DNA of 64,000 nt from an uncultured Acidobacteriota bacterium (GTDB taxonomy: Bacteria > Acidobacteriota > Terriglobia > 20CM-2-55-15), in assembly GCA_963836435.1 (NCBI GenBank), contig CAWIJI010000015.1, forward strand, positions 318-64,317, in the 5' to 3' direction. Position numbers and translations under genes: made by a program. The notes under the pieces are model-generated. The model made no database searches and was not told the origin of the DNA. It worked only from the letters and a program-made list of their open reading frames with translations. Of the stretch, positions 52,493-64,000 are shown piece after piece. How positions within the stretch are numbered: the first letter of the stretch is position 1; every line of letters starts with the position of its first letter.

Positions 52493-52838
52493 CTAGCTCG
52501 TTATGCCGGGCATAACGAGAATTTTGTTCCCGCAAGCCATAACGGGCCAGGCGCCGAAGGCGCCCTGGAGTTTAGTTAGACATTCTAGCCCCGGGTGGAG
52601 CGCAGCGACACCCGGGGTTCATCTCACGAGGGGCGTTCGCACCCCGGCAGGCCCCGGCAGGGGTGCGAGGAATCCCTGCACCCCTGCCGGGGTGCGAACA
52701 TCTCCGTTACGGCAACCCCGGGTTGCGCTCGCTTCGCTCGCTTAACCCGGGGCTAAATTCTCAGCACGCCTCCGGCGTGCTAGCGCCGAAGGCGCCGCGC
52801 AAGCGCCCGACCCGGGGTCCGGGGCAGAGCCCCGTCTA
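52493..52838 (+). repeat. Composite repeat D: family 1 element (52565-52782) nested inside family 2
   Basis: Family 2 left half, GCGCCGAAGGCGCC (52551-52564), 218-bp family 1 insert, GCGCCGAAGGCGCC (52783-52796), family 2 right half. Confidence 0.9.
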
Positions 52839-54093
52839 CCTGGACTCCGCGGCCCCAACCGGCCGGTAGTCGATCTGATCCGCCTGCTCGAAAATCCTGC
52901 CGGCCGGATTGAAGATCTGATTCAGCAACAAGCCCACGAAGAGGAGTGCGGAGAACCCCGTGGCAAGAGCGAAGCCATAAATCGGACCGCCCATGGCGTC
53001 GCTGACTGCGCCCATCGCCAGCGGAGCCAGCACAGCCGAAATGCAGGTATAGAAGAGAATCACTCCTGCGGCGGCACCGTGCTCCGACTTCGGCACGCAA
53101 CTGATGCCCTTGGAATTGATCGTCGGATAGATCACGGACATGAACAGTCCGGACAAGGGTAAGGAATAGACGGCCCAGCGCACGCCACCGGCAATGCTGA
53201 TTGCGAAACATGCCAGGATCAGTCCGCTGCAGATGGTCAGAACCGAGGTCCACGAAAGCTCGGTTCAGCATCCAGGCGCCCAGGAATCGTCCGCCGGCGC
53301 GGAGCAGAAAGAAAATCGAGATGCTGTAGACGGCGATCCATTTCCCGGCACCGCTGTAGTCCGCCAGGAGCGTCGGCATCCACACATAGATCGCGGCTTC
53401 AACCGCGACATAAAGAAATGCTCCCAGCGAGAACAACAGAACGAAGCGGTTCTTCATCACCGCCATGATGGACTCAGATCCGTGTGTTCCGCCGCTGCCG
53501 AAGCCCGCTTGGGGTACTGAGCTCCAGATGCAGTCAGAATCAGCAGGACGCACATACTGCCCGCGATCACGTACAGCCAGTGCCATGGAACGCTGCGATT
53601 CAACAACTGAGCCAGAACGGCCGGGCCCAAGATCGAACCAATGCCGAAAAAGCCTTCGACCCAGTTCATGATCGAGGTGTGTTCCGCGGTCGATCTCGAG
53701 ATGTCGCCGATAAGCGCGAGCGCACCGGTCTTGAAGATACCGATGGCGATGCCGGAAAGAGCCATCAGCACGCAGAAAAACAGAAACGAGCTTCCCGCGA
53801 GGAAGAGGTACGAGGAGGCGGCGAAAAGCGTCAGGCCGGTGACGAATGGTCGTTTTCCTTCCGTACCGGTCCGCCAGGTGACCAAGGAAAAAGCCGGCCA
53901 TCGCGATGCCCGCCATCGTGGCGTATTGAAACGTTCCCGCTGCGGTCAGGCTCAATCGGAACGTCTTCACGATTTCCGGAATGATGATGCCGACCGAGTC
54001 GGTAGTCATGGCAAACATCGCGAACATCAGATAGGTCAGGATCTTGAGGGCCGTCATGTTCAAACGGCTGCCCGAGCCGGCCGGCTGCATCAT
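52836..54093 (-). CDS. MFS sugar transporter (FucP/GluP-like), frameshifted
   Basis: FAMTTDSVGIIIP, LADRYGRK, GIFKTGALALIG, EGFFGIG, YVAVEAAIYVW, FMSVIYPTINSKGI across three frames. Confidence 0.8.
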
Positions 54094-55598
54094 GGCGCGA
54101 TCTCCTGCGACGCACCGGGCGATGAGAACAAGCCGCCGTTCTCCGGCGTCGCCGGAAGACTGTGGCGCCGTGCATCGCCTTCAAGTCGACTTCCAGGCGA
54201 GCCCACTGACTGCCGTTCCGCCACTCGATCAGAGATCTCGTGGTCCGCGCTGGGCAGCAGACGAAACTCTCCCGCGAATGCGGGATGCGTGTTGCGGAAC
54301 CGGATCAAATCGAAGAGCGTCTCGAACGACAGGACGCGTGAGCTCGGAGTCGATCTTCGCGGGCTGGTAGTAATGGCGGTTGATGTCGCGGCCTACACCG
54401 GTACGGCGCAGCAGGTCCAGATCATTCGCGCCCGCCAGCAGTCCCACGTAGTAGACCTGCGGCATTCCCGGCGCGAAGAACTGAAGAGCGCGGGCGATCA
54501 GGTACTCTTCATCGCGCCGCCCAAGCGCGTCATAGTAGGTGCAATTGACTTGATACAGGTCCAGGTTGTTCGCTGCGGCTCCGGTCGCCTGGCGGCTTTC
54601 GCCGTTGCTCCGCGCGTGAATCGTTTCGACGAGATTGTCGATCTCCTCCGCGATCAGCAACCCGGGCAGGAGCTCTTGGCTCTTCCGCGATCCGGCCCGA
54701 CATCGATGACGCCGATTCCGTCGTGCGTGTCGAGCACGGTGACTGCAGTTCCGAGGGCTGATGCTCAGCCAATGTTTCAAGCGCGCGGCGCGTGCGCGTG
54801 TACAAAGCGTGCAGCACCAGAGGCGGCAGAGCGAAATCGTAAACCCAGTCGACCTGCTTGGCGATTTGATCTGATCCTGGTAGTGGCCGTGGATCTCCAC
54901 CAGCACTTCGATTTCCAGCGCGTGGGCCTGCGCCGTGAGCTCCGCGATGAAGTCGAAGGTCTCCGGGATCATGAAACAACTGGTGCCCGGTTTCTTGATC
55001 GCGTATCCTGCGGCATCCAGGCGGATCGCGCGAATGCCGGCGGCCTGAAACTGCTCAGGATCTGGTCCAGATAGACCTTGCCCGCAGACGAGCGGACATC
55101 GATATCGATTTGCTCGGGCGTGAAAGTGGTCCAGAGCAGACGTTCCGCTGCCGTCATCCATTGCGCGTCTTCGTGAACGGAAGGCTCGGGCGCGGGCGAT
55201 AGATCTGGAGCAGATCGACTTCGGTCGCTCCTTTCGGAAAGACACGTCCGTAAGTCAGGAACAGGCCGGCGTAGGGCGAGGCGTCGCCGTGTCCTGCGCA
55301 AGTCCTCGAATTGCGGCGACCGGATGGAGACGTGGTTGACGATCAGGTCGGCCATCAGATCCCTGCCCTGGGCCAGCGCGACGCACGTCGTTCCACGAGC
55401 CCAAGCCGCGGAATCCGGTTGCGTGTGGTCGATCGGATCGAAGCCGGCATCGGCGCCGTCGATCGGCCAGAAGAAGGGCAGGAGATGCGCGCCGCCGAAC
55501 AACCCGGCAAGGGGTCCATCGAGCAGATCCTGGAGTGCGCGAAATCCGCCGCCGGAGAAGCGGTCGACGTAGGTGATGAGTTGGACCTGATTTCTCAC
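54090..55598 (-). CDS. gtfA: Sucrose phosphorylase (GH13_18), frameshifted
   Basis: MRNQVQLITYVDR, HLLPFF, ADAGFDPIDH, DLIVNH, LWTTFTPEQIDID, IRLDAAGYAIK, EIHGHY, VLDTHDGIG (shifted), NLDLYQVNCTYYDAL, PQVYYVGLLAG, GRDINRH. Confidence 0.88.
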
Positions 55599-56498
55599 GC
55601 ACTCCTTCGTCTAAGCTTCACAGCCTCTTCCAGGGTCCAGTCGGGGATTGCGCCGTGACGGCTGGCGACCAGCGCGCCGACGCGATTCGCAAACGAGGCG
55701 ATTTCGGCCGCGGGCCAGTTCAGGCTGAGTCCGTGCATGAACGCGGCAGCGAAAGCGTCGCCGGCCCCAACGGGATCGACGACATCTACCGGGTGTCCGG
55801 CCGCTTCGACATAATGCCCGTCGGCGAGGATGGCGCAGCCGCCGTCTCCCAGCGTGACGGCTACGGCCTTCCACCCGTAACGAACGGCAGCCTCTCGGCA
55901 AAATGTCTCGCACGTACAAGGGAAGTCCCGAGAATTCGTGCACTCGCTGCAGTTCCTCCTCGTTGAGCTTCACAACGTCTGCCCATTGCATGAGTCGATT
56001 CACCAGTGCCGGCGAATCGCAGCCCGGCCGGAGGTTCAAGTCATAGAACTTCACGGTTTCGTCCAACCTGGCCAGGAGCCGTTCCAGTATCGTTTTGCCC
56101 TGATGGGTCGAGGCAAACAGCGTCCCGTAATAAAGCCATCCCGGGGCCTCGCGACTGAGGCTTTCGATATCGCTATCGGAAATCCGGATGGCGTCATAGG
56201 CCGCGGGACGTGGGATGTAGAAGTGCGTCTTGCCTCCAGGGACGAGTTCGACGGTGGCGGTTCCCGTTGGAAACGCGGAGGTAAATTGAAGAAAGGTCGT
56301 ATCGATTTGAAGTGCGGCGATCCGCTCGGCCGCTTGCCGGCCGAGTTCGTCCACGCCAACCGCGCTGATCAGGCAAACGTCATGCCCTAACCGCTTCGCG
56401 TGGACCGCAAAGTTCAGGGGCGCACCGCCCAGGCCGCTGGAGTGCGGGAAAATGTCCCAAAGTACTTCGCCCAGGGCGACGACGCGGCGTCGCTCCAT
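55595..56498 (-). CDS. PfkB-family carbohydrate kinase (fructokinase-like), frameshifted
   Basis: GEVLWD, GGAPLNFA, VGVDELG, PTGTATV, YDLNLRP, KLNEEE, then VTLGDGG and DPVGAGDAF in the shifted frame; ends in a GTGA overlap with the next gene. Confidence 0.88.
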
Positions 56499-56577
56499 AA
56501 TCTGTAAAGACAGGTTTACGTCAGATGGACAATCAGGTTTCACGGGATCGCTACTATTCGCGTTTAAAGAAGAGCTG

Positions 56578-57684
56578 TCAATTTTTCTTTTTCCGCGCAC
56601 CGCAGGAATCGCGAACCACGAGATGGAAGTTCAGCAGAATATCCCGTGCGGGCAGTTTCGGATCCCGTACGCGCTCGATCATGGCACTGACGGCAATAGC
56701 ACCCATGATTGCGCATGGCTGATGAATGGTCGTCAACGGAACTGACAAGAGACTGGCGTATTTCACATCGTCAATGCCTGCCATTTGCACCTCGTCCGGA
56801 ACGGAGACGCCCAAATCGGTCAGTGTTCTTAACAGGCGCGCAGCCGTGAAATCGTTGGCGCAGACGAAGCCTTCAGGACGGAGACGTTGCAGAATCTTTT
56901 TGACCTGGACCTGATCCTCCGGGTCAACGCGGCACACCTGCGGCCCGCCTTTGAGCTTTGCATCGGCGACCGCTTCCCGATAGCCGGCGATACGCGCATC
57001 GACTGTCGGCGCGGAGCCGGGGCGGCCGAGAAACACGACGTTGCGGCACCCACAGCGGATGAGGTGCTGGGTGACCACATAGCCGGCCCTGCGGTTATCG
57101 ATACCGACCAGATCGTAGCGGCTCCGTTCCGGATACGAGACCAGATCGCGGTCGAGCAGAACTACGGGAATCCCGGCCTTGTCGAGTGCCTCGGCGATGC
57201 CCCGGTTGATGGCATCTTTTTGAGGCGTCATTTCCAGCGGAGCGAAGAAGACGCCCGACACCCGCTTGGCAATCAACTGACGGCAGGCTTGAGAGGCCTG
57301 CTGTTCCATGTTTGCTTCGTCCCCCAGCGAGCTGCCCCAAAGCAAAACGTGGTGGCCGCCATGCTGGGCTTCTGCCATGCCACGGCAAAGCGGCTCAAAA
57401 ATCTCGGTTCGTCCCAGTTCCGGGATCAGGAGGCCAAACGTATACCCCCTCGCGACAGAATCGACGCGCACGTAACTGCCCGACCCTGCCCGGCGCTCGA
57501 TTGCCCCGGACAACTGCAGTTCCCTCAATGCACGGATTACCGTGGGTCGCGAAGCAGCAAACGTCTTCACAAGATCCGATTCACTGGGAAGGCGCTGCCC
57601 CGGCTGATACTCGCCGGATGCGATGGCATCGGAGAGACTTTGCCGGATAATCTCGTATTTTGGGGAGGCCTCTTGCGAACTCAT
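56578..57684 (-). CDS. GntR-wHTH + LacI-type sugar-binding hybrid regulator (AraR-like)
   Basis: YQPGQRLPSESDL...SRPTVIRAL...RRAGSGSYV, then GIDNRRAG, FVCAND, GIDD, LTTIHQP. Confidence 0.88.
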   Translation of the reverse strand: MSSQEASPKYEIIRQSLSDAIASGEYQPGQRLPSESDLVKTFAASRPTVIRALRELQLSGAIERRAGSGSYVRVDSVARGYTFGLLIPELGRTEIFEPLCRGMAEAQHGGHHVLLWGSSLGDEANMEQQASQACRQLIAKRVSGVFFAPLEMTPQKDAINRGIAEALDKAGIPVVLLDRDLVSYPERSRYDLVGIDNRRAGYVVTQHLIRCGCRNVVFLGRPGSAPTVDARIAGYREAVADAKLKGGPQVCRVDPEDQVQVKKILQRLRPEGFVCANDFTAARLLRTLTDLGVSVPDEVQMAGIDDVKYASLLSVPLTTIHQPCAIMGAIAVSAMIERVRDPKLPARDILLNFHLVVRDSCGARKKKN

Positions 57685-57751: not shown

Positions 57752-58726
57752 TCACCGGCCCGCTTCCGGTATCCACTTGTGCCGGGCCATGAATCGCAGC
57801 GCCTGTTCGGGCCACTCCTTGATCGTCTCGTCGTTCAGATTCGTGCCCATCCCAAAGCCGTGAGGACCGTTCTCCAGAATGTGCATTTCCGCGGAGACTC
57901 CCGCCTGGAGACAAGCCTCGTAAAACAACAGCGAGTTTTTCACAGGGACCAGCCGGTCGTTCGTGCCGTGGACCAGGAACACCGGCGGGGTGTCCCGAGT
58001 GACGTGCTTTTGGGGTGACAAGAGATCGTACAGGGCCGGGTTATCCTGCGTCAGGTTGGTTCGGGAGCCTCGATGGGTGACCGCGTCGTCCGTCAGATCA
58101 ATGACCGGATAAAGGAGGAGTGCGAAGGCCGGCCTGGCACTCAACCCATCCGTCGCGTCCGCGACGTAGGGGCTCTCCGGCTGCAGTTTGTTGTCGTACA
58201 GAGTGGCCAGCAATGCTGCCAGATGCCCACCCGCCGAGCCGCCGAGGACACCAACCTTGGCCGGATCCACGTGATACTCCTGAGCGTGGGCCCGGATGAG
58301 CCGCAGCGCGCGTTGGGCATCCAGGAGGGTCGTGGGATAGTGATAGCGCGGCCCGTGCCGATAACGCAGGACGAATGCTGCGACGTTGTGCGACAGAAAG
58401 AACCTTGCCGGCTCCGGTCCTTCACCCGGTACCGTCAACATCTGATACCCGCCACCCGGCAGGATAAGCACCCCGGCCCCCGTGGCCTTGTCCGGTTCCG
58501 GAATATACACATCCAGCGTCGGCTCCGTGGGGTCCAGCTCCGTCTCCCGGCCGGCGACGACGTTGGGCGTCGTGCCGTACAGCTTGATGCGCGGCACGTT
58601 ATCGGTGGCCCGCGCAGCCGACACGGCCGCCTGGGTCGCCGCGGCCGCGCCGGGCATAGAGACAAGCGTCGCGCATGTTAGCGCCCCGAGAAACAACAAC
58701 GTCCCGGCAATCCAAGTTCGACGCAT
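57752..58726 (-). CDS. Exported alpha/beta hydrolase (acetyl/feruloyl esterase-like)
   Basis: Signal peptide; LPGGGY, GGSAGGH, HGTND, GPHGFG. Confidence 0.85.
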   Translation of the reverse strand: MRRTWIAGTLLFLGALTCATLVSMPGAAAATQAAVSAARATDNVPRIKLYGTTPNVVAGRETELDPTEPTLDVYIPEPDKATGAGVLILPGGGYQMLTVPGEGPEPARFFLSHNVAAFVLRYRHGPRYHYPTTLLDAQRALRLIRAHAQEYHVDPAKVGVLGGSAGGHLAALLATLYDNKLQPESPYVADATDGLSARPAFALLLYPVIDLTDDAVTHRGSRTNLTQDNPALYDLLSPQKHVTRDTPPVFLVHGTNDRLVPVKNSLLFYEACLQAGVSAEMHILENGPHGFGMGTNLNDETIKEWPEQALRFMARHKWIPEAGR

Positions 58727-58751
58727 GAAAGAAATCCTCCTAACCGTTCGC

Positions 58752-59741
58752 CTACTTAACCCAACCCTTCAGCGTGTCGGCCACGGCGGTCGCCCAGATC
58801 TCGTAGCCCTGCGGATTGGGGTGAAGGTGTCATTGCGGAAACCGATGAGGCGTCCCTGATCGTCGAGGAACTTGTCGTTAATGTTCCGGAAGAAGACGTG
58901 TTTGCCATCATCCAGCCTGGCGATGATCTTGTTGGCCTCGTCATTCCTCATGCGGCTGGCATCGGTCGGGCCTGCGCCGCGCGGAAAATCGCCAGGAGCA
59001 GAATCCTGGCGTCCGGGAAAGTCCTTGCGCAATTCATAGATATCGGCGCCGACGCCCTCGGCAATCTCTGACTGCGGAGTTACCTTGACTATTGTTGTTC
59101 GTACCAATCATGAGCATGACGGCCTTGGGCTTGTGGCCCTGGCCTTCACCATTTTGCAGGCCCCACAGCACGCCCTGCGTGGTGTCGCCGGCGACCGCGA
59201 AATTCGCAATTTTCACGTCGCCGAAATACTTCTGCTGCACATCGGCGCCGCCCCCTGGGCCGCGGCCTGCTGCCACAAATCGGTAATGGAATCGCCGTCG
59301 AACAGGATATCGAAATCTCCGGTTTTGGCGGTCTCGACGAAGCCATCGTGGCGTTGCGGTCGTGCGCACGGAGTCTGAACTGGGGCGATCGCCGAGTTGG
59401 GCCGCGGCGCGGTGACGGCTGATCAGGTCGGCATACTTCTTCAGTACCGCGCGATCTGGCGACGTGTTGGAATCCACGAATCGCTTTAGAGACGCATTGA
59501 TCCTTTCCAGTTCATCGGCAGTGGGGCGCTGAATGGCCACTTCTGGAGGAACCGGTGCCGGAGGGCCCGCAGGCGCCCCACGCTGTCCCCTGCCGCCTCT
59601 GCCACCAGGCGCCTGGGGCGGAGCCTGGACTGGCGCCGCCAGCACTGCGCCCCCTGCCCTGCCGCCGCCCAAAGTGGCGCCCATCACTGTCGTCACACCC
59701 AGCACAGCAGCAAAAGAAATCCCAACCCAGTGTCGTTTCAT
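58752..59741 (-). CDS. Exported SGNH/GDSL acetylesterase (PAF-AH Ib-like), frameshifted
   Basis: Signal peptide; ILFDGDSITD (shifted), NFAVAGDTTQGVLW, MIGTNN, VIL-PRG-like segment, NDTFTP...GYEIWA. Confidence 0.78.
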
Positions 59742-59822
59742 ATGCACTCCTTCAACATAAGTTCCGGCAACATAAGTTCCGGCGCACCGCGCACGGAAGT
59801 GCGCCAAATTCATTCATGCTAC

Positions 59823-60803
<981 letters not shown>

Positions 60804-60856
60804 AAGACGAATACTCCTTCAGTTTCAGAGAAAGTTGGTTGACTCATTGGCATAGT

Positions 60857-61820
60857 CTAGTTGACCTTCGCGCCCTGGTCGTAGGGCTTCAGGCGGACGA
60901 ATCCAGACATTCCGATAGCGGACGCGCGCACGCCCCTGAAGCTGCAACGGCAACTCCGGATCGTGAGGCGTGTACACGTGCGGCGTCATGGTCGGCGTGG
61001 TGGTGCCGTACAACTCCGCGCGGTTTTGCACGACCACGCCGTTCCAGAAAATCGTAAAGTAGCCGGGCGTCACCCTGCCAGTGAACCGTGGCGCCTCGAA
61101 CACGATGTCGAGCGATTGCCATTCGCCGGGCTTTCGGGACACGTTCACGAGCGGCGGCCACTCCCCATAGATCGAAGCCATCATGCCGTCGGCGTACGTC
61201 CGGTTGTTGTACGAGTCCAGGATTTGGATCTCGTACCGGCCCATAAAGGTCACGCCGCCGTTGCCGCGATCCTGGCTTGTGCCCGTCACGTCGGCGGGAA
61301 TGGCGTATTCCAGGTGCAACTGGACGTCGCCGAAACTCTGCGCGAGTCGAAAGGTTGCCGCCCTGAGCCTCGAAGTAGCCGTCGCGCGACTGGCCAGGTC
61401 GCGGGAGACTCGGCGCCATTCGGTCCACGATTCACCCACTGCGACAGATCTTTGCCATCGAACAGCACGATAGAGTCGGAGGGCGGCGGGACGCTGACCG
61501 TTTCGCCCGGCGTGACCGTCGGCGGCTGCGGACGCTCCGGCATCGTGAATTCGCCATCGCGTATCGGGATTGAAGGCAGTGTCCGTGAATCCCCACACTT
61601 CGCCGTCCGGTCCGGGGACGGGGGTTCCCTGTCCAGCGCCTCCGCGTGCGCCACGGCCCGCTCCGCCACGACCCGCAGCCGGCTGCGCCGCACCTTGACC
61701 CTGCGGGGGCCCCTGCTGGGCCGAAACCAATATGCCCGACAAGCTACTGCCGGAAATCGCCAGACCCACGATACCGGCGAGCGCCAAACTGCGTATGACT
61801 TCAGTGTGATGACCGATCAT
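60857..61820 (-). CDS. DUF1080 / 3-keto-disaccharide hydrolase family protein, frameshifted
   Basis: PPPSDSIVLFDGKDLSQW (shifted frame), FGDVQLHLE, RGNGG, YEIQILDS, YADG, W-Q-x-L-D-I, VRYRNVWIR. Likely stop TAG at 60857-60859. Confidence 0.82.
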
Positions 61821-61838
61821 GAGAATCTCCCGATCCTC

Positions 61839-63477
61839 TCAATAGAGAGTAAACGCATACAGTGTGTCGCCGATTGCGACCAGAACGTGCTGGCGCCCAT
61901 CCACCAGATACGTCTGCGGCGCATTGGAGGTGTTGCCGATGCGGGTATGCCAGAGCGGCTTGCCGTCTCGCGCATCCCGTGCCACGAAATTGCCGCTGCC
62001 GTCTCCGGACAATAACAGCCCTCCCGCCGTTGTCAGCAGCCCGGCCCCGACGCCGCCGCCCGTAATGGGTTTTCGCCACGCGACGCGTCCGGTCTTGTAG
62101 TCGATCGCTGTCAGGAAATCGCCGGCAGAACCGACAATCGAAACCGTCTTGCCGCCCAGTCCCATGGAGCCGCGCGGATCGGGGTCGCTCAGGTACAGGA
62201 GGTCGAAGCCATTGTGTTCGTTCACGTAAAAGAGGCCCGTATCCGGGGAGAACGCCGCCGGGGGCCAGTTCGTCACGCCGCTTTCCACCGGAGAAACCAG
62301 CGACCCCGGAATCGTCGCTTCCTTGCCAGGGTCCGGTTCGACAACGCCGTTAGGGCGCGTGCCTTTGGCCCAGTTCGCCGTCGAACCGTACCTGGCTGTG
62401 ACGATGTTTTCGCCGGTGACGCGATCGAGTGTGAAAAAGTAGCCGTTGCGCGCCGCGGTCGAGACCAGTTTGCGCGGCCGGCCATTGATCGACGCCGTCA
62501 ATCAGCACCGGAGTCTGCGCGGAATCCCAATCGTGGGTGTCATGCACGGAAGTCTGGAAATACCAGGCCATCTTGCCCGTGTCCACGTTTACGGCAATCA
62601 GCGAACAGGTGAAAAGGTTGTCGCCGGGCCGCCCGGCCCCCGTGTAGGCCGGCGTCGGATTACCGGTTCCGAAGATGTAGAGCTTCGTCTCGGGATCGTA
62701 GACTCCGGGAACCCAGACCTGACCGCCGCCGTGGCGCGCCGCTTCCAGGTTCGGCCAGGTTTCGAGCCCGGGGTCGCCCGGGTTCATGGGCACCGTATAG
62801 AACTTCCACTGCAGCTTTCCGGTTTCCGGATCGTAAGACTGAAGGAATCCGGGCGCATCAAGATCATTACCTGTTCCGACCAGCAGATGGTCACCGACAA
62901 CCACCGGCGCCATGGTCGAGAAATACTGTCCTTCGAAGTCCGCGATTTCAATGTGCCAGCGTTCCTTGCCCGTCTTTGCGTCCAGCGACACCAGGTAGTC
63001 GTCGGGAGTTTCGAAGAACAGATAGTTGTGCCAGATGCCAACACCCCGATTGCCGGTGTGGGTGCCCCCGCGCGTTCTCCAGAAGTAATGCCACAGCAGG
63101 CGGCCGTCACGCGCATCCAGCGCCCAGACATGGTCGGCCGCCGTGGCATAGAGCGTGTCGTCAACGTACAGGATCGAACCCGAGACGTTCCCATTGGTGT
63201 ACTCACCGGCGCCCACGCCGCCGAGAATCGTCTGTGGGCTTCCAGCGGCGCCGTTCAGACGCGCCACCCAGGACAGGGTGAGATTCTTCACCGTGTTGCG
63301 GTTGACCTGCGTGAGCGCACTGAAACGGCGTCCGGTGTAGTCCCCGGAGTATGTGGGCCAGGTGTCCGACAGAGGCTTGAGCAGGAGAGCAGGGTCGAGT
63401 CCGCCGGAAGACTGCGCCGCGGAGAGAACCGGCAGCGCCGCCAGGAAAATGAGCAGGAGGATCCTTCGGATTTTCAT
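61839..63477 (-). CDS. Acido-empty-quinoprotein group A-like PQQ beta-propeller, frameshift near 62490
   Basis: LLKPLSDTWPTYSGDYTGRRFS, HTGNRG, NDLDAPG, GGGQVWVPG, GTGNPTP, HDTHDWDSAQTP, ARNGYFF, APQTYLVDGRQHV. Resembles TIGR04528 as recalled. Confidence 0.8.
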
Positions 63478-64000
63478 TTCAGGGTTACCAGGTATGCCGT
63501 CACGTCGTGGATATCCTTGTCCGTGTAGACGGAAAGCAGTTTGAGATGGCCTTCGCGCGGGATGCGGATTTCAACCTTCGGCACATCGCCTTCGCGGCGG
63601 AAAGAACGCGACGTGCCGTCCGCCAGCGCGAGCGCGACGACGAATTCGTCGGCGCGAATGACTCTCCCCTCGACCTTTTGCCCGTTGCGCAGGGTTACGG
63701 TCGCGGTCGACGGCGTGGATCCCGCCGCCGCGTCCCCCGGTGCCGCCGGTGACCCAGGTGTTCTGCAGCTGCGCGGGATTTGTAAACCGCGCGCCGATTC
63801 CGCGGAGATCTCCCGTTGCCGAATGACAGCCGGCGCACTTGGATTCGAAATAGGAGCGGCCCGCGGCCGCATCGCCCACGAGCACGTTGAGAGACACCGG
63901 CGGACCGGGCGGCGGAGACCCTTGCCCCCGCGCTGTTGCCAGAACGCTATGGATGTACTCGGCGATGGCTCGCGTGTCCTCGGCTGGGCAGATCGATGGG
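63474..64000 (-). CDS. c-type cytochrome, 3' part (runs off the window; frameshift near 63720)
   Basis: IAEYIHSV...GDAAAGRSYFESKCAGCHS, then TVTLRNGQKVEG...YTDKDIHDVTAYLVTLK; overlaps the quinoprotein start. Confidence 0.78.
   Translation of the reverse strand, partial: HRSAQPRTREPSPSTSIAFWQQRGGKGLRRPVRRCLSTCSWAMRPRAAPISNPSAPAVIRQREISAESARGLQIPRSCRTPGSPAAPGDAAAGSTPSTATVTLRNGQKVEGRVIRADEFVVALALADGTSRSFRREGDVPKVEIRIPREGHLKLLSVYTDKDIHDVTAYLVTLK

Follow-up and report, generated by a model that had tools for sequence, protein, structure and literature searches.

The DUF1080 protein BT2157 cleaves 3-keto-trehalose (PMC8121099). The DUF1080 enzymes BT2 and AL2 have been redefined as a combined 3-keto-α-glucoside 1,2-lyase and glucal hydratase, and the xylose-isomerase-like TIM barrel BT1/AL1 is the β-lyase (bioRxiv 10.1101/2024.03.25.586180). 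In Caulobacter, LacABC, a cytochrome c-dependent glycoside 3-dehydrogenase that contains flavin adenine dinucleotide (FAD), works with DUF1080 proteins (PMC9007349, PMC8121099). Here we describe a locus that places a DUF1080 gene beside a different kind of predicted dehydrogenase. It lies in a 64,000-nucleotide stretch of DNA from an uncultured Acidobacteriota bacterium (the window: positions 318-64317 of contig C15 of the source genome, G000; the contig extends 1029 nt beyond the window end), and encodes a dihaem cytochrome c, a quinoprotein of family TIGR04528, a DUF1080 protein, three esterases, and a regulator, kinase, sucrose phosphorylase and major facilitator superfamily (MFS) transporter (Table 1). 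The known 3-keto-glycoside pathway is based on FAD or nicotinamide adenine dinucleotide (NAD). These genes suggest a new version, in which a propeller of the type that carries pyrroloquinoline quinone (PQQ), together with a dihaem cytochrome, stands beside the same partner set. A literature search returned no paper or preprint on DUF1080 together with PQQ, and TIGR04528 is named in none of 8.4 million papers and preprints searched; a 2026 preprint ties six-bladed PQQ enzymes, not TIGR04528, to clusters of carbohydrate-active enzymes.

We would give about an even chance to the following reading: at this locus, carbohydrate would be oxidised in the periplasm by a PQQ/cytochrome c version of 3-keto-glycoside cleavage, with deacylated plant glycosides as substrates. 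Exported esterases would first free a plant glycoside or oligosaccharide of its acyl groups (feruloyl, acetyl or galloyl-type). The quinoprotein would then oxidise a hydroxyl of the sugar ring, most likely at C3, using PQQ that is probably scavenged and perhaps, by its DxD signature, a lanthanide. The dihaem cytochrome c, co-translated with the quinoprotein, would take up the electrons and deliver them to the respiratory chain, and the DUF1080 protein would cleave the glycosidic bond of the keto-sugar. The freed sugars would be imported and handled by the neighbouring, separately regulated unit of kinase, sucrose phosphorylase and MFS transporter. We infer these chemical steps, the oxidation site and the substrate from what was observed: gene families and their order; recurrence of the linkage; conservation of the active site; and absence of pqqC. 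C3 oxidation, and acylsucroses as substrates, are put forward as hypotheses.

The closest described counterparts are BT2156-BT2160 of Bacteroides and AL1-AL4 of Alistipes. These also are periplasmic, include a DUF1080 protein of the same fold family, and proceed by oxidation, elimination and hydration; moreover, their exported xylose-isomerase-like TIM barrel has counterparts in a second G000 module, on contig C8, and in many relatives. However, their dehydrogenase is an NAD-bound Gfo/Idh/MocA protein exported by the twin-arginine translocation (Tat) pathway. The window has, at the position of the dehydrogenase, a PQQ-type propeller that is paired with a dihaem cytochrome c of its own, and electrons therefore would enter respiration. 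The window locus differs further in encoding no reductase and in a DUF1080 protein only 17-20% identical to BT2/AL2; the TIM barrels of the related modules belong to other subfamilies. The cytochrome c-dependent FAD 3-dehydrogenases (LacABC, ThuAB, and Agrobacterium G3DH; PMC9007349) share three features that here are predicted from genes: periplasmic glycoside oxidation; coupling to cytochrome c; and DUF1080 nearby. Catalysis there, in contrast, falls to a GMC flavoprotein, which is accompanied by a small Tat subunit. The fungal AA12 enzyme CcPDH (PMC4332668) resembles our prediction in using PQQ, in oxidising a ring hydroxyl of pyranoses, in its plant-biomass setting, and in having a cytochrome partner, but it is six-bladed and eukaryotic, carries a fused cytochrome b, and has no DUF1080 link.

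The ten genes run co-directionally on the minus strand, from about 64416 down to 52836, with intergenic gaps of −4 to 67 nt. The cytochrome c stop and the quinoprotein ATG overlap by 4 nt; 18 nt separate the quinoprotein from DUF1080, 53 nt separate DUF1080 from the PF00756 esterase, and 67 nt separate the BD-FAE esterase from the regulator. Hydrophobic amino-terminal leaders, judged by eye, are present on all six periplasmic products. Thus profile searches and coordinates bear out the first-pass annotation of this DNA, which named these families as co-directional and closely spaced and proposed export where the amino terminus was visible. Its statement that FAD (GMC) and NAD (Gfo/Idh/MocA) dehydrogenases are missing also holds for contig C15, on which tblastn with queries of both families found neither.

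In the 4.94 Mb of G000, PF06439 retrieves no more than two true DUF1080 genes, each placed immediately behind a pair of cytochrome c and TIGR04528 genes. One is that of the window; the other belongs to an intact module on contig C8 (Table 1), which is a cleaner exemplar than the window locus. G000 encodes about 29 quinoprotein-like proteins, only about five of them with a dihaem cytochrome; none of the roughly 24 paralogs without a cytochrome has a DUF1080 or TIM-barrel neighbour. (Across C8:251785-260164, the intact module is preceded by two exported sorbosone-dehydrogenase-like proteins, GSDH-type by eye, and a TauE-like membrane protein.)

To count linkage, we sampled 75 pairs of cytochrome c and quinoprotein genes across 21 genera of the class to which G000 belongs, and scored neighbours within 2.5 kb. 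A homologous cytochrome c gene lies upstream of the quinoprotein gene in all 75, mostly with a 4-nt overlap; the pair is a fixed two-gene unit. The commonest partner was the xylose-isomerase-like TIM barrel (31 pairs, 13 genera), followed by DUF1080 (14 pairs, 7 genera), Gfo/Idh/MocA (11 pairs) and a NupG-like transporter (7 pairs); at least one of these four keto-sugar partners, checked with Pfam, is present at 44 pairs. By sequence, the TIM barrels beside the pairs have no detectable likeness to BT1/AL1. Genomes carry few copies of the partner genes (2-17 for DUF1080, 5-38 for the TIM barrel), so that linkage by chance is expected at roughly 0.3-5%; enrichment over background is at least 10-fold. 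DUF1080 genes of different subfamilies, some upstream and some downstream of the pair, are linked in six or more separate clades of the quinoprotein tree. Such a spread points to recruitment on several occasions, not to one inherited accident. The link of quinoprotein and cytochrome to DUF1080 is real and recurs; an absence of recurring linkage, which the first-pass annotation named as grounds for refutation, was not observed.

Family TIGR04528 ("acido-empty-quinoprotein group A") has a curated cut-off of 650 bits. Of the window quinoprotein, one piece (profile positions 2-281) scores 445.4 bits and the other (280-493) 261.3, each below 650 alone; the intact G007 ortholog, 87% identical, scores 708.9. 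(G007, from a related genus, and G164 are genomes of relatives; L-numbers denote sampled loci or contigs.) This family is purely bioinformatic, with no assigned function, and its name implies a host without PQQ synthesis, in line with the lack of a pqqC match in G000. The best solved relatives are PedH (6ZCV/6ZCW, E 5e-61), followed by quinohaemoprotein alcohol dehydrogenases and XoxF. In common with PedH/ExaA-ExaB and XoxF-XoxG (6ZCV, 6ZCW, 1KV9, 6DAM), the predicted protein has eight blades, a catalytic and a lanthanide-type Asp, Arg and Trp contacts to PQQ, and an adjoining cytochrome c gene. Alignment to PedH shows four residues invariant in all 75 pair quinoproteins: both Asp of HDxHD[WYF]D, one corresponding to the catalytic base and the other to an additional Asp that is characteristic of lanthanide enzymes; the Arg that contacts PQQ (RNG); and the stacking Trp. 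Several other features set these proteins apart from PedH and XoxF: scores below the family cut-off; no vicinal Cys-Cys; Asp for Glu; an Asn ligand that is not conserved; and sugar-enzyme neighbours instead of aldehyde or C1 genes. The cytochrome differs as well, being dihaem with an extra carboxyl-terminal β domain; its two CxxCH motifs, CRSCHG and CAGCHS, lie in the contig extension. This residue profile reads as that of an active but atypical PQQ enzyme.

No match to pqqC (TIGR02111) was found in G000 or in 38 of 40 relatives; for G000, only 68.8% complete, this is weak evidence alone. PQQ scavenging is documented in other bacteria (PMC12124388). G007 is one of the two relatives with a match: G007:C203:2075-2746 matches pqqC over its full length (361 bits), in an assembly of 760 contigs with 4% contamination, and the gene may or may not belong to the organism. 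(Elsewhere in G000, C11:531464-539864 holds four tandem quinoprotein-like paralogs without a dihaem cytochrome.)

The window DUF1080 protein matches PF06439 with 88.6 bits (cut-off 26.8). An AlphaFold 2 model of a 90%-identical ortholog (predicted local distance difference test score 86) has a concanavalin-like fold, and matches 4QHZ first, then AL2 (8V31), BT2 (8TDA and 3OSD) and 9FBE. Matches to AL2, BT2 and 9FBE have E values of about 1e-9 and template-modelling scores of about 0.58. As judged from this model, the window protein falls in the fold family of the BT2/AL2 3-keto-glycoside eliminase-hydratases.

All three esterases belong to recognised families. The CE1-like protein matches Pfam Esterase PF00756 with 53.2 bits (cut-off 22), and scores 94 bits against the feruloyl-esterase part of an NCBIfam xylanase/feruloyl esterase model. 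The broken SGNH gene reaches only 28.5 bits against PF13472 (Lipase_GDSL_2; cut-off 32.9), whereas its intact G007 ortholog (L111:9162-10142) scores 88.3. The BD-FAE protein matches PF20434 with 104.9 bits (cut-off 26.8), PaeX with 175 and AxeA1 with 141.

Esterases recur in the two subclades closest to the window module. The closest comprises G007, G164, and the soil and rhizosphere contigs L202-L205 and L207, whose quinoproteins are 85-92% identical to that of the window. In G007, G164, L202, L203 and L204 the order is tannase/feruloyl esterase (PF07519), cytochrome c, quinoprotein, DUF1080; L205 and L207 begin at the cytochrome c or quinoprotein gene and show the same order from there. The G164 operon runs on into a sugar ABC (ATP-binding cassette) transporter of monosaccharide type. 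L203 (Ga0134121_10000413) has a GH51 arabinofuranosidase and a GH10 xylanase nearby, which is an arabinoxylan-type context. (The GH51 and GH10 genes, together with an MBL-fold gene and a gene like those of classical PQQ alcohol dehydrogenases (PF01011, 625 bits), are convergent on this operon at L203:11074-16959.) The G000 tannase ortholog, 83% identical, lies at a contig end (C16:199946-202345) and is followed by a GH51 arabinofuranosidase-like gene with a Tat signal; probably it was separated from the module by rearrangement or by assembly. The second subclade (L208, L211 and L214) has the order DUF1080, cytochrome c, quinoprotein, BD-FAE esterase, with a further α/β-hydrolase esterase just upstream of DUF1080 in L208 and L211. 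Its BD-FAE esterase is the ortholog of the window gene (80-81% identical to it, and 86-89% to the G007 ortholog), and its DUF1080 protein is 84-86% identical to that of G007, though the quinoprotein is only 71% identical. An exported esterase of some kind is a constant companion of the DUF1080-linked module in these two subclades, and its identity varies. Thus the association of esterases with the module, noted in the first-pass annotation, is recurrent in kind; the trio as a set is not.

The sucrose genes also stay close. The regulator (GntR, 61.7 bits; Peripla_BP_3, 109.7 bits) shares 82% identity with its G007 counterpart, which comes first in the kinase-phosphorylase-MFS unit there; the kinase matches PfkB with 64.4 bits. 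The sucrose phosphorylase gene is broken, and its amino-terminal piece in the window scores 65 bits against TIGR03852 (cut-off 334.4); the G007 ortholog scores 457.6. Kinase, phosphorylase and MFS genes adjoin the module in four loci (G000, G007, G164 and L203) and in three arrangements: downstream and co-directional in G000; upstream and co-directional in G164; divergent in G007 and L203. The regulator accompanies the block where it is visible (G000 and G007). Because the placement varies, and because the block is divergent in two loci, it is a separate transcription unit. The cluster had been described as running into these genes; the adjacency stands, but a single unit does not. That the block remains nearby through rearrangements suggests a functional tie and is not proof of one.

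Several observations weigh against a PQQ-dependent 3-keto-glycoside pathway at this locus. Family TIGR04528 has no characterised member to date, be it for activity, substrate or position of oxidation. Around the conserved residues, GGTH replaces the vicinal Cys-Cys pair; the Glu metal ligand is Asp in 60 of the 75 sequences; and the Asn metal ligand is replaced by Tyr or Thr. The absence of pqqC leaves the cofactor supply unexplained. The 4QHZ (BDI_3914) subfamily, in which the DUF1080 protein falls, is uncharacterised, and the low identity of the protein to BT2/AL2 has been given above. A reverse survey covered the 80 closest genomic relatives of this subfamily, from many phyla: a quinoprotein lies nearby in only 3-5, and Gfo/Idh/MocA in 8, whereas most have no conserved neighbour. 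No neighbour is dominant, and a general quinoprotein linkage of the subfamily was rejected. About half of the cytochrome c-quinoprotein pairs lack any keto-sugar partner, and four of the 75 have a lactonase-like neighbour, which would fit oxidation at C1. The window locus itself lacks the exported xylose-isomerase-like TIM-barrel lyase and encodes no keto-sugar reductase. The three esterases were rejected as a conserved part of the operon: the trio is specific to G000, and in G007 the SGNH-BD-FAE pair is on another contig, among other hydrolases. Finally, eight of the ten genes are frame-interrupted as assembled, with about 28 frameshifts in 12 kb; only the BD-FAE esterase and regulator genes are intact.

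Some of these points would be accommodated by general periplasmic sugar oxidation or polysaccharide use without 3-keto chemistry: the quinoprotein would gain respiratory energy by oxidising C1 of free aldoses or oligosaccharides, or another alcohol group; DUF1080 would be an ordinary glycanase or lectin-like protein; and the esterases would deacylate hemicellulose. The lactonase-like β-propeller genes, the nearby GH10, GH51 and feruloyl or acetyl esterase genes, and the existence of sugar-oxidising eight-bladed quinoproteins such as sorbose dehydrogenase (4MH1) all are in keeping with it. So is the characterised single-domain DUF1080 endo-xanthanase/lichenase cited in PMC9007349. However, keto-sugar partners are by far the commoner neighbours of the pairs and lactonases are few, which makes this somewhat unlikely. 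Much less credible is an alcohol dehydrogenase that burns small alcohols (methanol) or aromatic alcohols freed by the esterases, with DUF1080 unrelated. The closest solved relatives are indeed ethanol and methanol dehydrogenases, lanthanide alcohol dehydrogenases have a DxD motif of this type, and esterases adjoin. On the other hand, esterases of these families free phenolic acids or acetate rather than alcohols; genes for handling aldehyde or formaldehyde do not recur beside the 75 pairs; the Cys-Cys pair is missing; and scores fall below the cut-off of 480 bits for the methanol/ethanol family TIGR03075 (G007 ortholog, 357.9; window pieces, 224.8 and 121.1). Least probable is chance juxtaposition of unrelated genes, which we consider scarcely tenable. 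Order and orientation do vary among G000, G007 and G164, as does the esterase set between genomes. Yet both G000 DUF1080 genes lie behind such pairs, the enrichment extends over the clades and the 7-13 genera counted above, and proximity survives rearrangement.

The frameshifts raise a different alternative: whatever its role in relatives, the cluster in G000 may be a decaying, non-functional pseudogene block. (The earlier inventory had the gene families right and overlooked the frameshifts.) Frame changes were mapped against intact G007 orthologs at loci L013 and L111, which are 82-87% identical. In the quinoprotein gene, the extra base is visible as GTC-G-ATC at 62490. Cytochrome c aligns to the intact 312-residue G007 ortholog in frames −2/−3/−1/−2/−3, and the SGNH gene to its ortholog in frames −3/−1/−3/−1/−3. 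The GLSMGG nucleophile motif of the CE1-like esterase is hidden in a shifted frame between two compensating frameshifts. Read through its frameshifts, DUF1080 is about 90% identical to L204, an intact soil-metagenome ortholog, and stops at 60857-60859; the kinase occupies two frames, with a corrected stop at 55595-55597; and the MFS gene falls into four frame segments, 76-90% identical to the intact 413-residue G007 protein. Frame-switch density was computed per 10 kb, on the same strand, with a Viterbi frame model; coverage by open reading frames is uninformative in a genome of 60% G+C. The locus stretch is third-worst in the genome: the median is 4 switches per 10 kb, and this stretch has 19.

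Such density speaks for decay, as do similar patches elsewhere, the 32-nt insertion in the phosphorylase gene, and one in-frame stop in a gene fragment upstream of the cytochrome. Nevertheless, decay is unlikely, and the frameshifts very probably are consensus errors rather than loss of function. Consensus error is favoured because single-base insertions that do not fall in homopolymers make up at least 18 of about 25 scorable events; because nonsense codons are absent from 2558 aligned codons; because broken genes match their orthologs as well as intact ones do; and because the assembly combines 18 contigs (4.94 Mb) with 68.8% marker completeness. So few large contigs at that completeness fit an indel-rich long-read consensus. 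A metagenome scan found no contig of the same species (best protein identity, 89%) and so did not settle error versus decay. The insertion, at window positions 54665-54700 relative to G007, is the sole large indel and is not typical of consensus error. Other patches of high switch density are C13:90000-100000, C16:30000-40000 and C10:300000-310000, with a maximum of 26 per 10 kb; the C13 patch spans two DUF1592/DUF1552/ankyrin clusters. The G000 assembly seems to have locally poor consensus, and gene calls in such patches need care.

Acidobacteria rank among the most abundant soil bacteria. Their genomes carry "empty" quinoprotein genes by the dozen, with up to about 50 matches in those examined, and to our knowledge none of these proteins has an assigned function. 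Should the quinoproteins with a cytochrome partner oxidise glycosides before DUF1080 or TIM-barrel lyases act, a large orphan family would gain a function, the recently discovered non-Koshland cleavage of glycosides would extend to a new cofactor class and to respiration, and plant-litter turnover would depend on soil PQQ and perhaps on lanthanide availability. A broader proposal is tentative, and on balance doubtful: TIGR04528 quinoproteins and their dihaem cytochromes may constitute a third, PQQ/lanthanide-dependent class of glycoside (3-)dehydrogenase, with DUF1080 and TIM-barrel lyases completing non-hydrolytic cleavage of deacylated plant glycosides in abundant PQQ-auxotrophic soil Acidobacteria that respire the electrons. 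For experiments, the intact C8 module or the metagenome orthologs L203 and L204 are better material than the error-laden window locus.

Table 1. Genes of the locus, in window numbering, and the second module of the same genome.
Feature	Coordinates	Strand	Remarks
Dihaem cytochrome c, 3' part	63474..64000	-	Start ~64416, past the window on the same contig; 4 frameshifts
TIGR04528 quinoprotein, 8-bladed PQQ-type propeller	61839..63477	-	1 frameshift, at 62490
Exported DUF1080 protein (PF06439), 4QHZ-type subfamily	60857..61820	-	4 frameshifts
Exported CE1-like esterase (PF00756), nearest feruloyl-esterase domain	59823..60803	-	2 compensating frameshifts
Exported SGNH/GDSL esterase	58752..59813	-	4 frameshifts
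Exported BD-FAE/Abhydrolase_3 esterase, acetyl-xylan/feruloyl/pectin acetylesterase type	57752..58726	-	Intact
Regulator, GntR-type helix-turn-helix and LacI-type sugar-binding domain	56578..57684	-	Intact; heads sucrose block
PfkB-family sugar kinase, fructokinase-like	55595..56600	-	1 frameshift near 55900; start uncertain
Sucrose phosphorylase (GH13_18)	54130..55604	-	At least 9 frameshifts; 32-nt insertion relative to G007; 3' end approximate
MFS transporter	52836..54093	-	3 frameshifts
Second, intact module	G000:C8:255929-260164		Order: Tat TIM barrel, dihaem cytochrome c, quinoprotein (794 bits), DUF1080

A scan for promoters and terminators found sites no more numerous than in shuffled sequence, and so did not define transcription units. 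The best σ70-like match of the region, TTGACA-17-AATAGT at 56553-56581 on the minus strand, falls after the regulator stop and before the kinase gene, and could be a regulated promoter of the kinase-phosphorylase-MFS unit.

A further co-directional gene ends no more than 45 nt upstream of cytochrome c and is cut by the contig end (C15:64779-65345); this is the fragment with the in-frame stop, and it has no significant Pfam assignment. Its 672-residue paralog (G000:C3:57880-60303) adjoins another quinoprotein-like gene, has a weak Chondroitinase B match (18.9 bits), and probably is an exported β-helix protein.

Low-complexity stretches rich in Gly and Arg (RGG-like) are encoded at window positions 59580-59640, 60250-60300, 60690-60740 and 61640-61700, and at contig positions 64240-64290. 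They are located behind the signal peptides of four products (cytochrome, DUF1080, CE1-like and SGNH), and cross-match in tblastn; in some orthologs they are shorter or missing.

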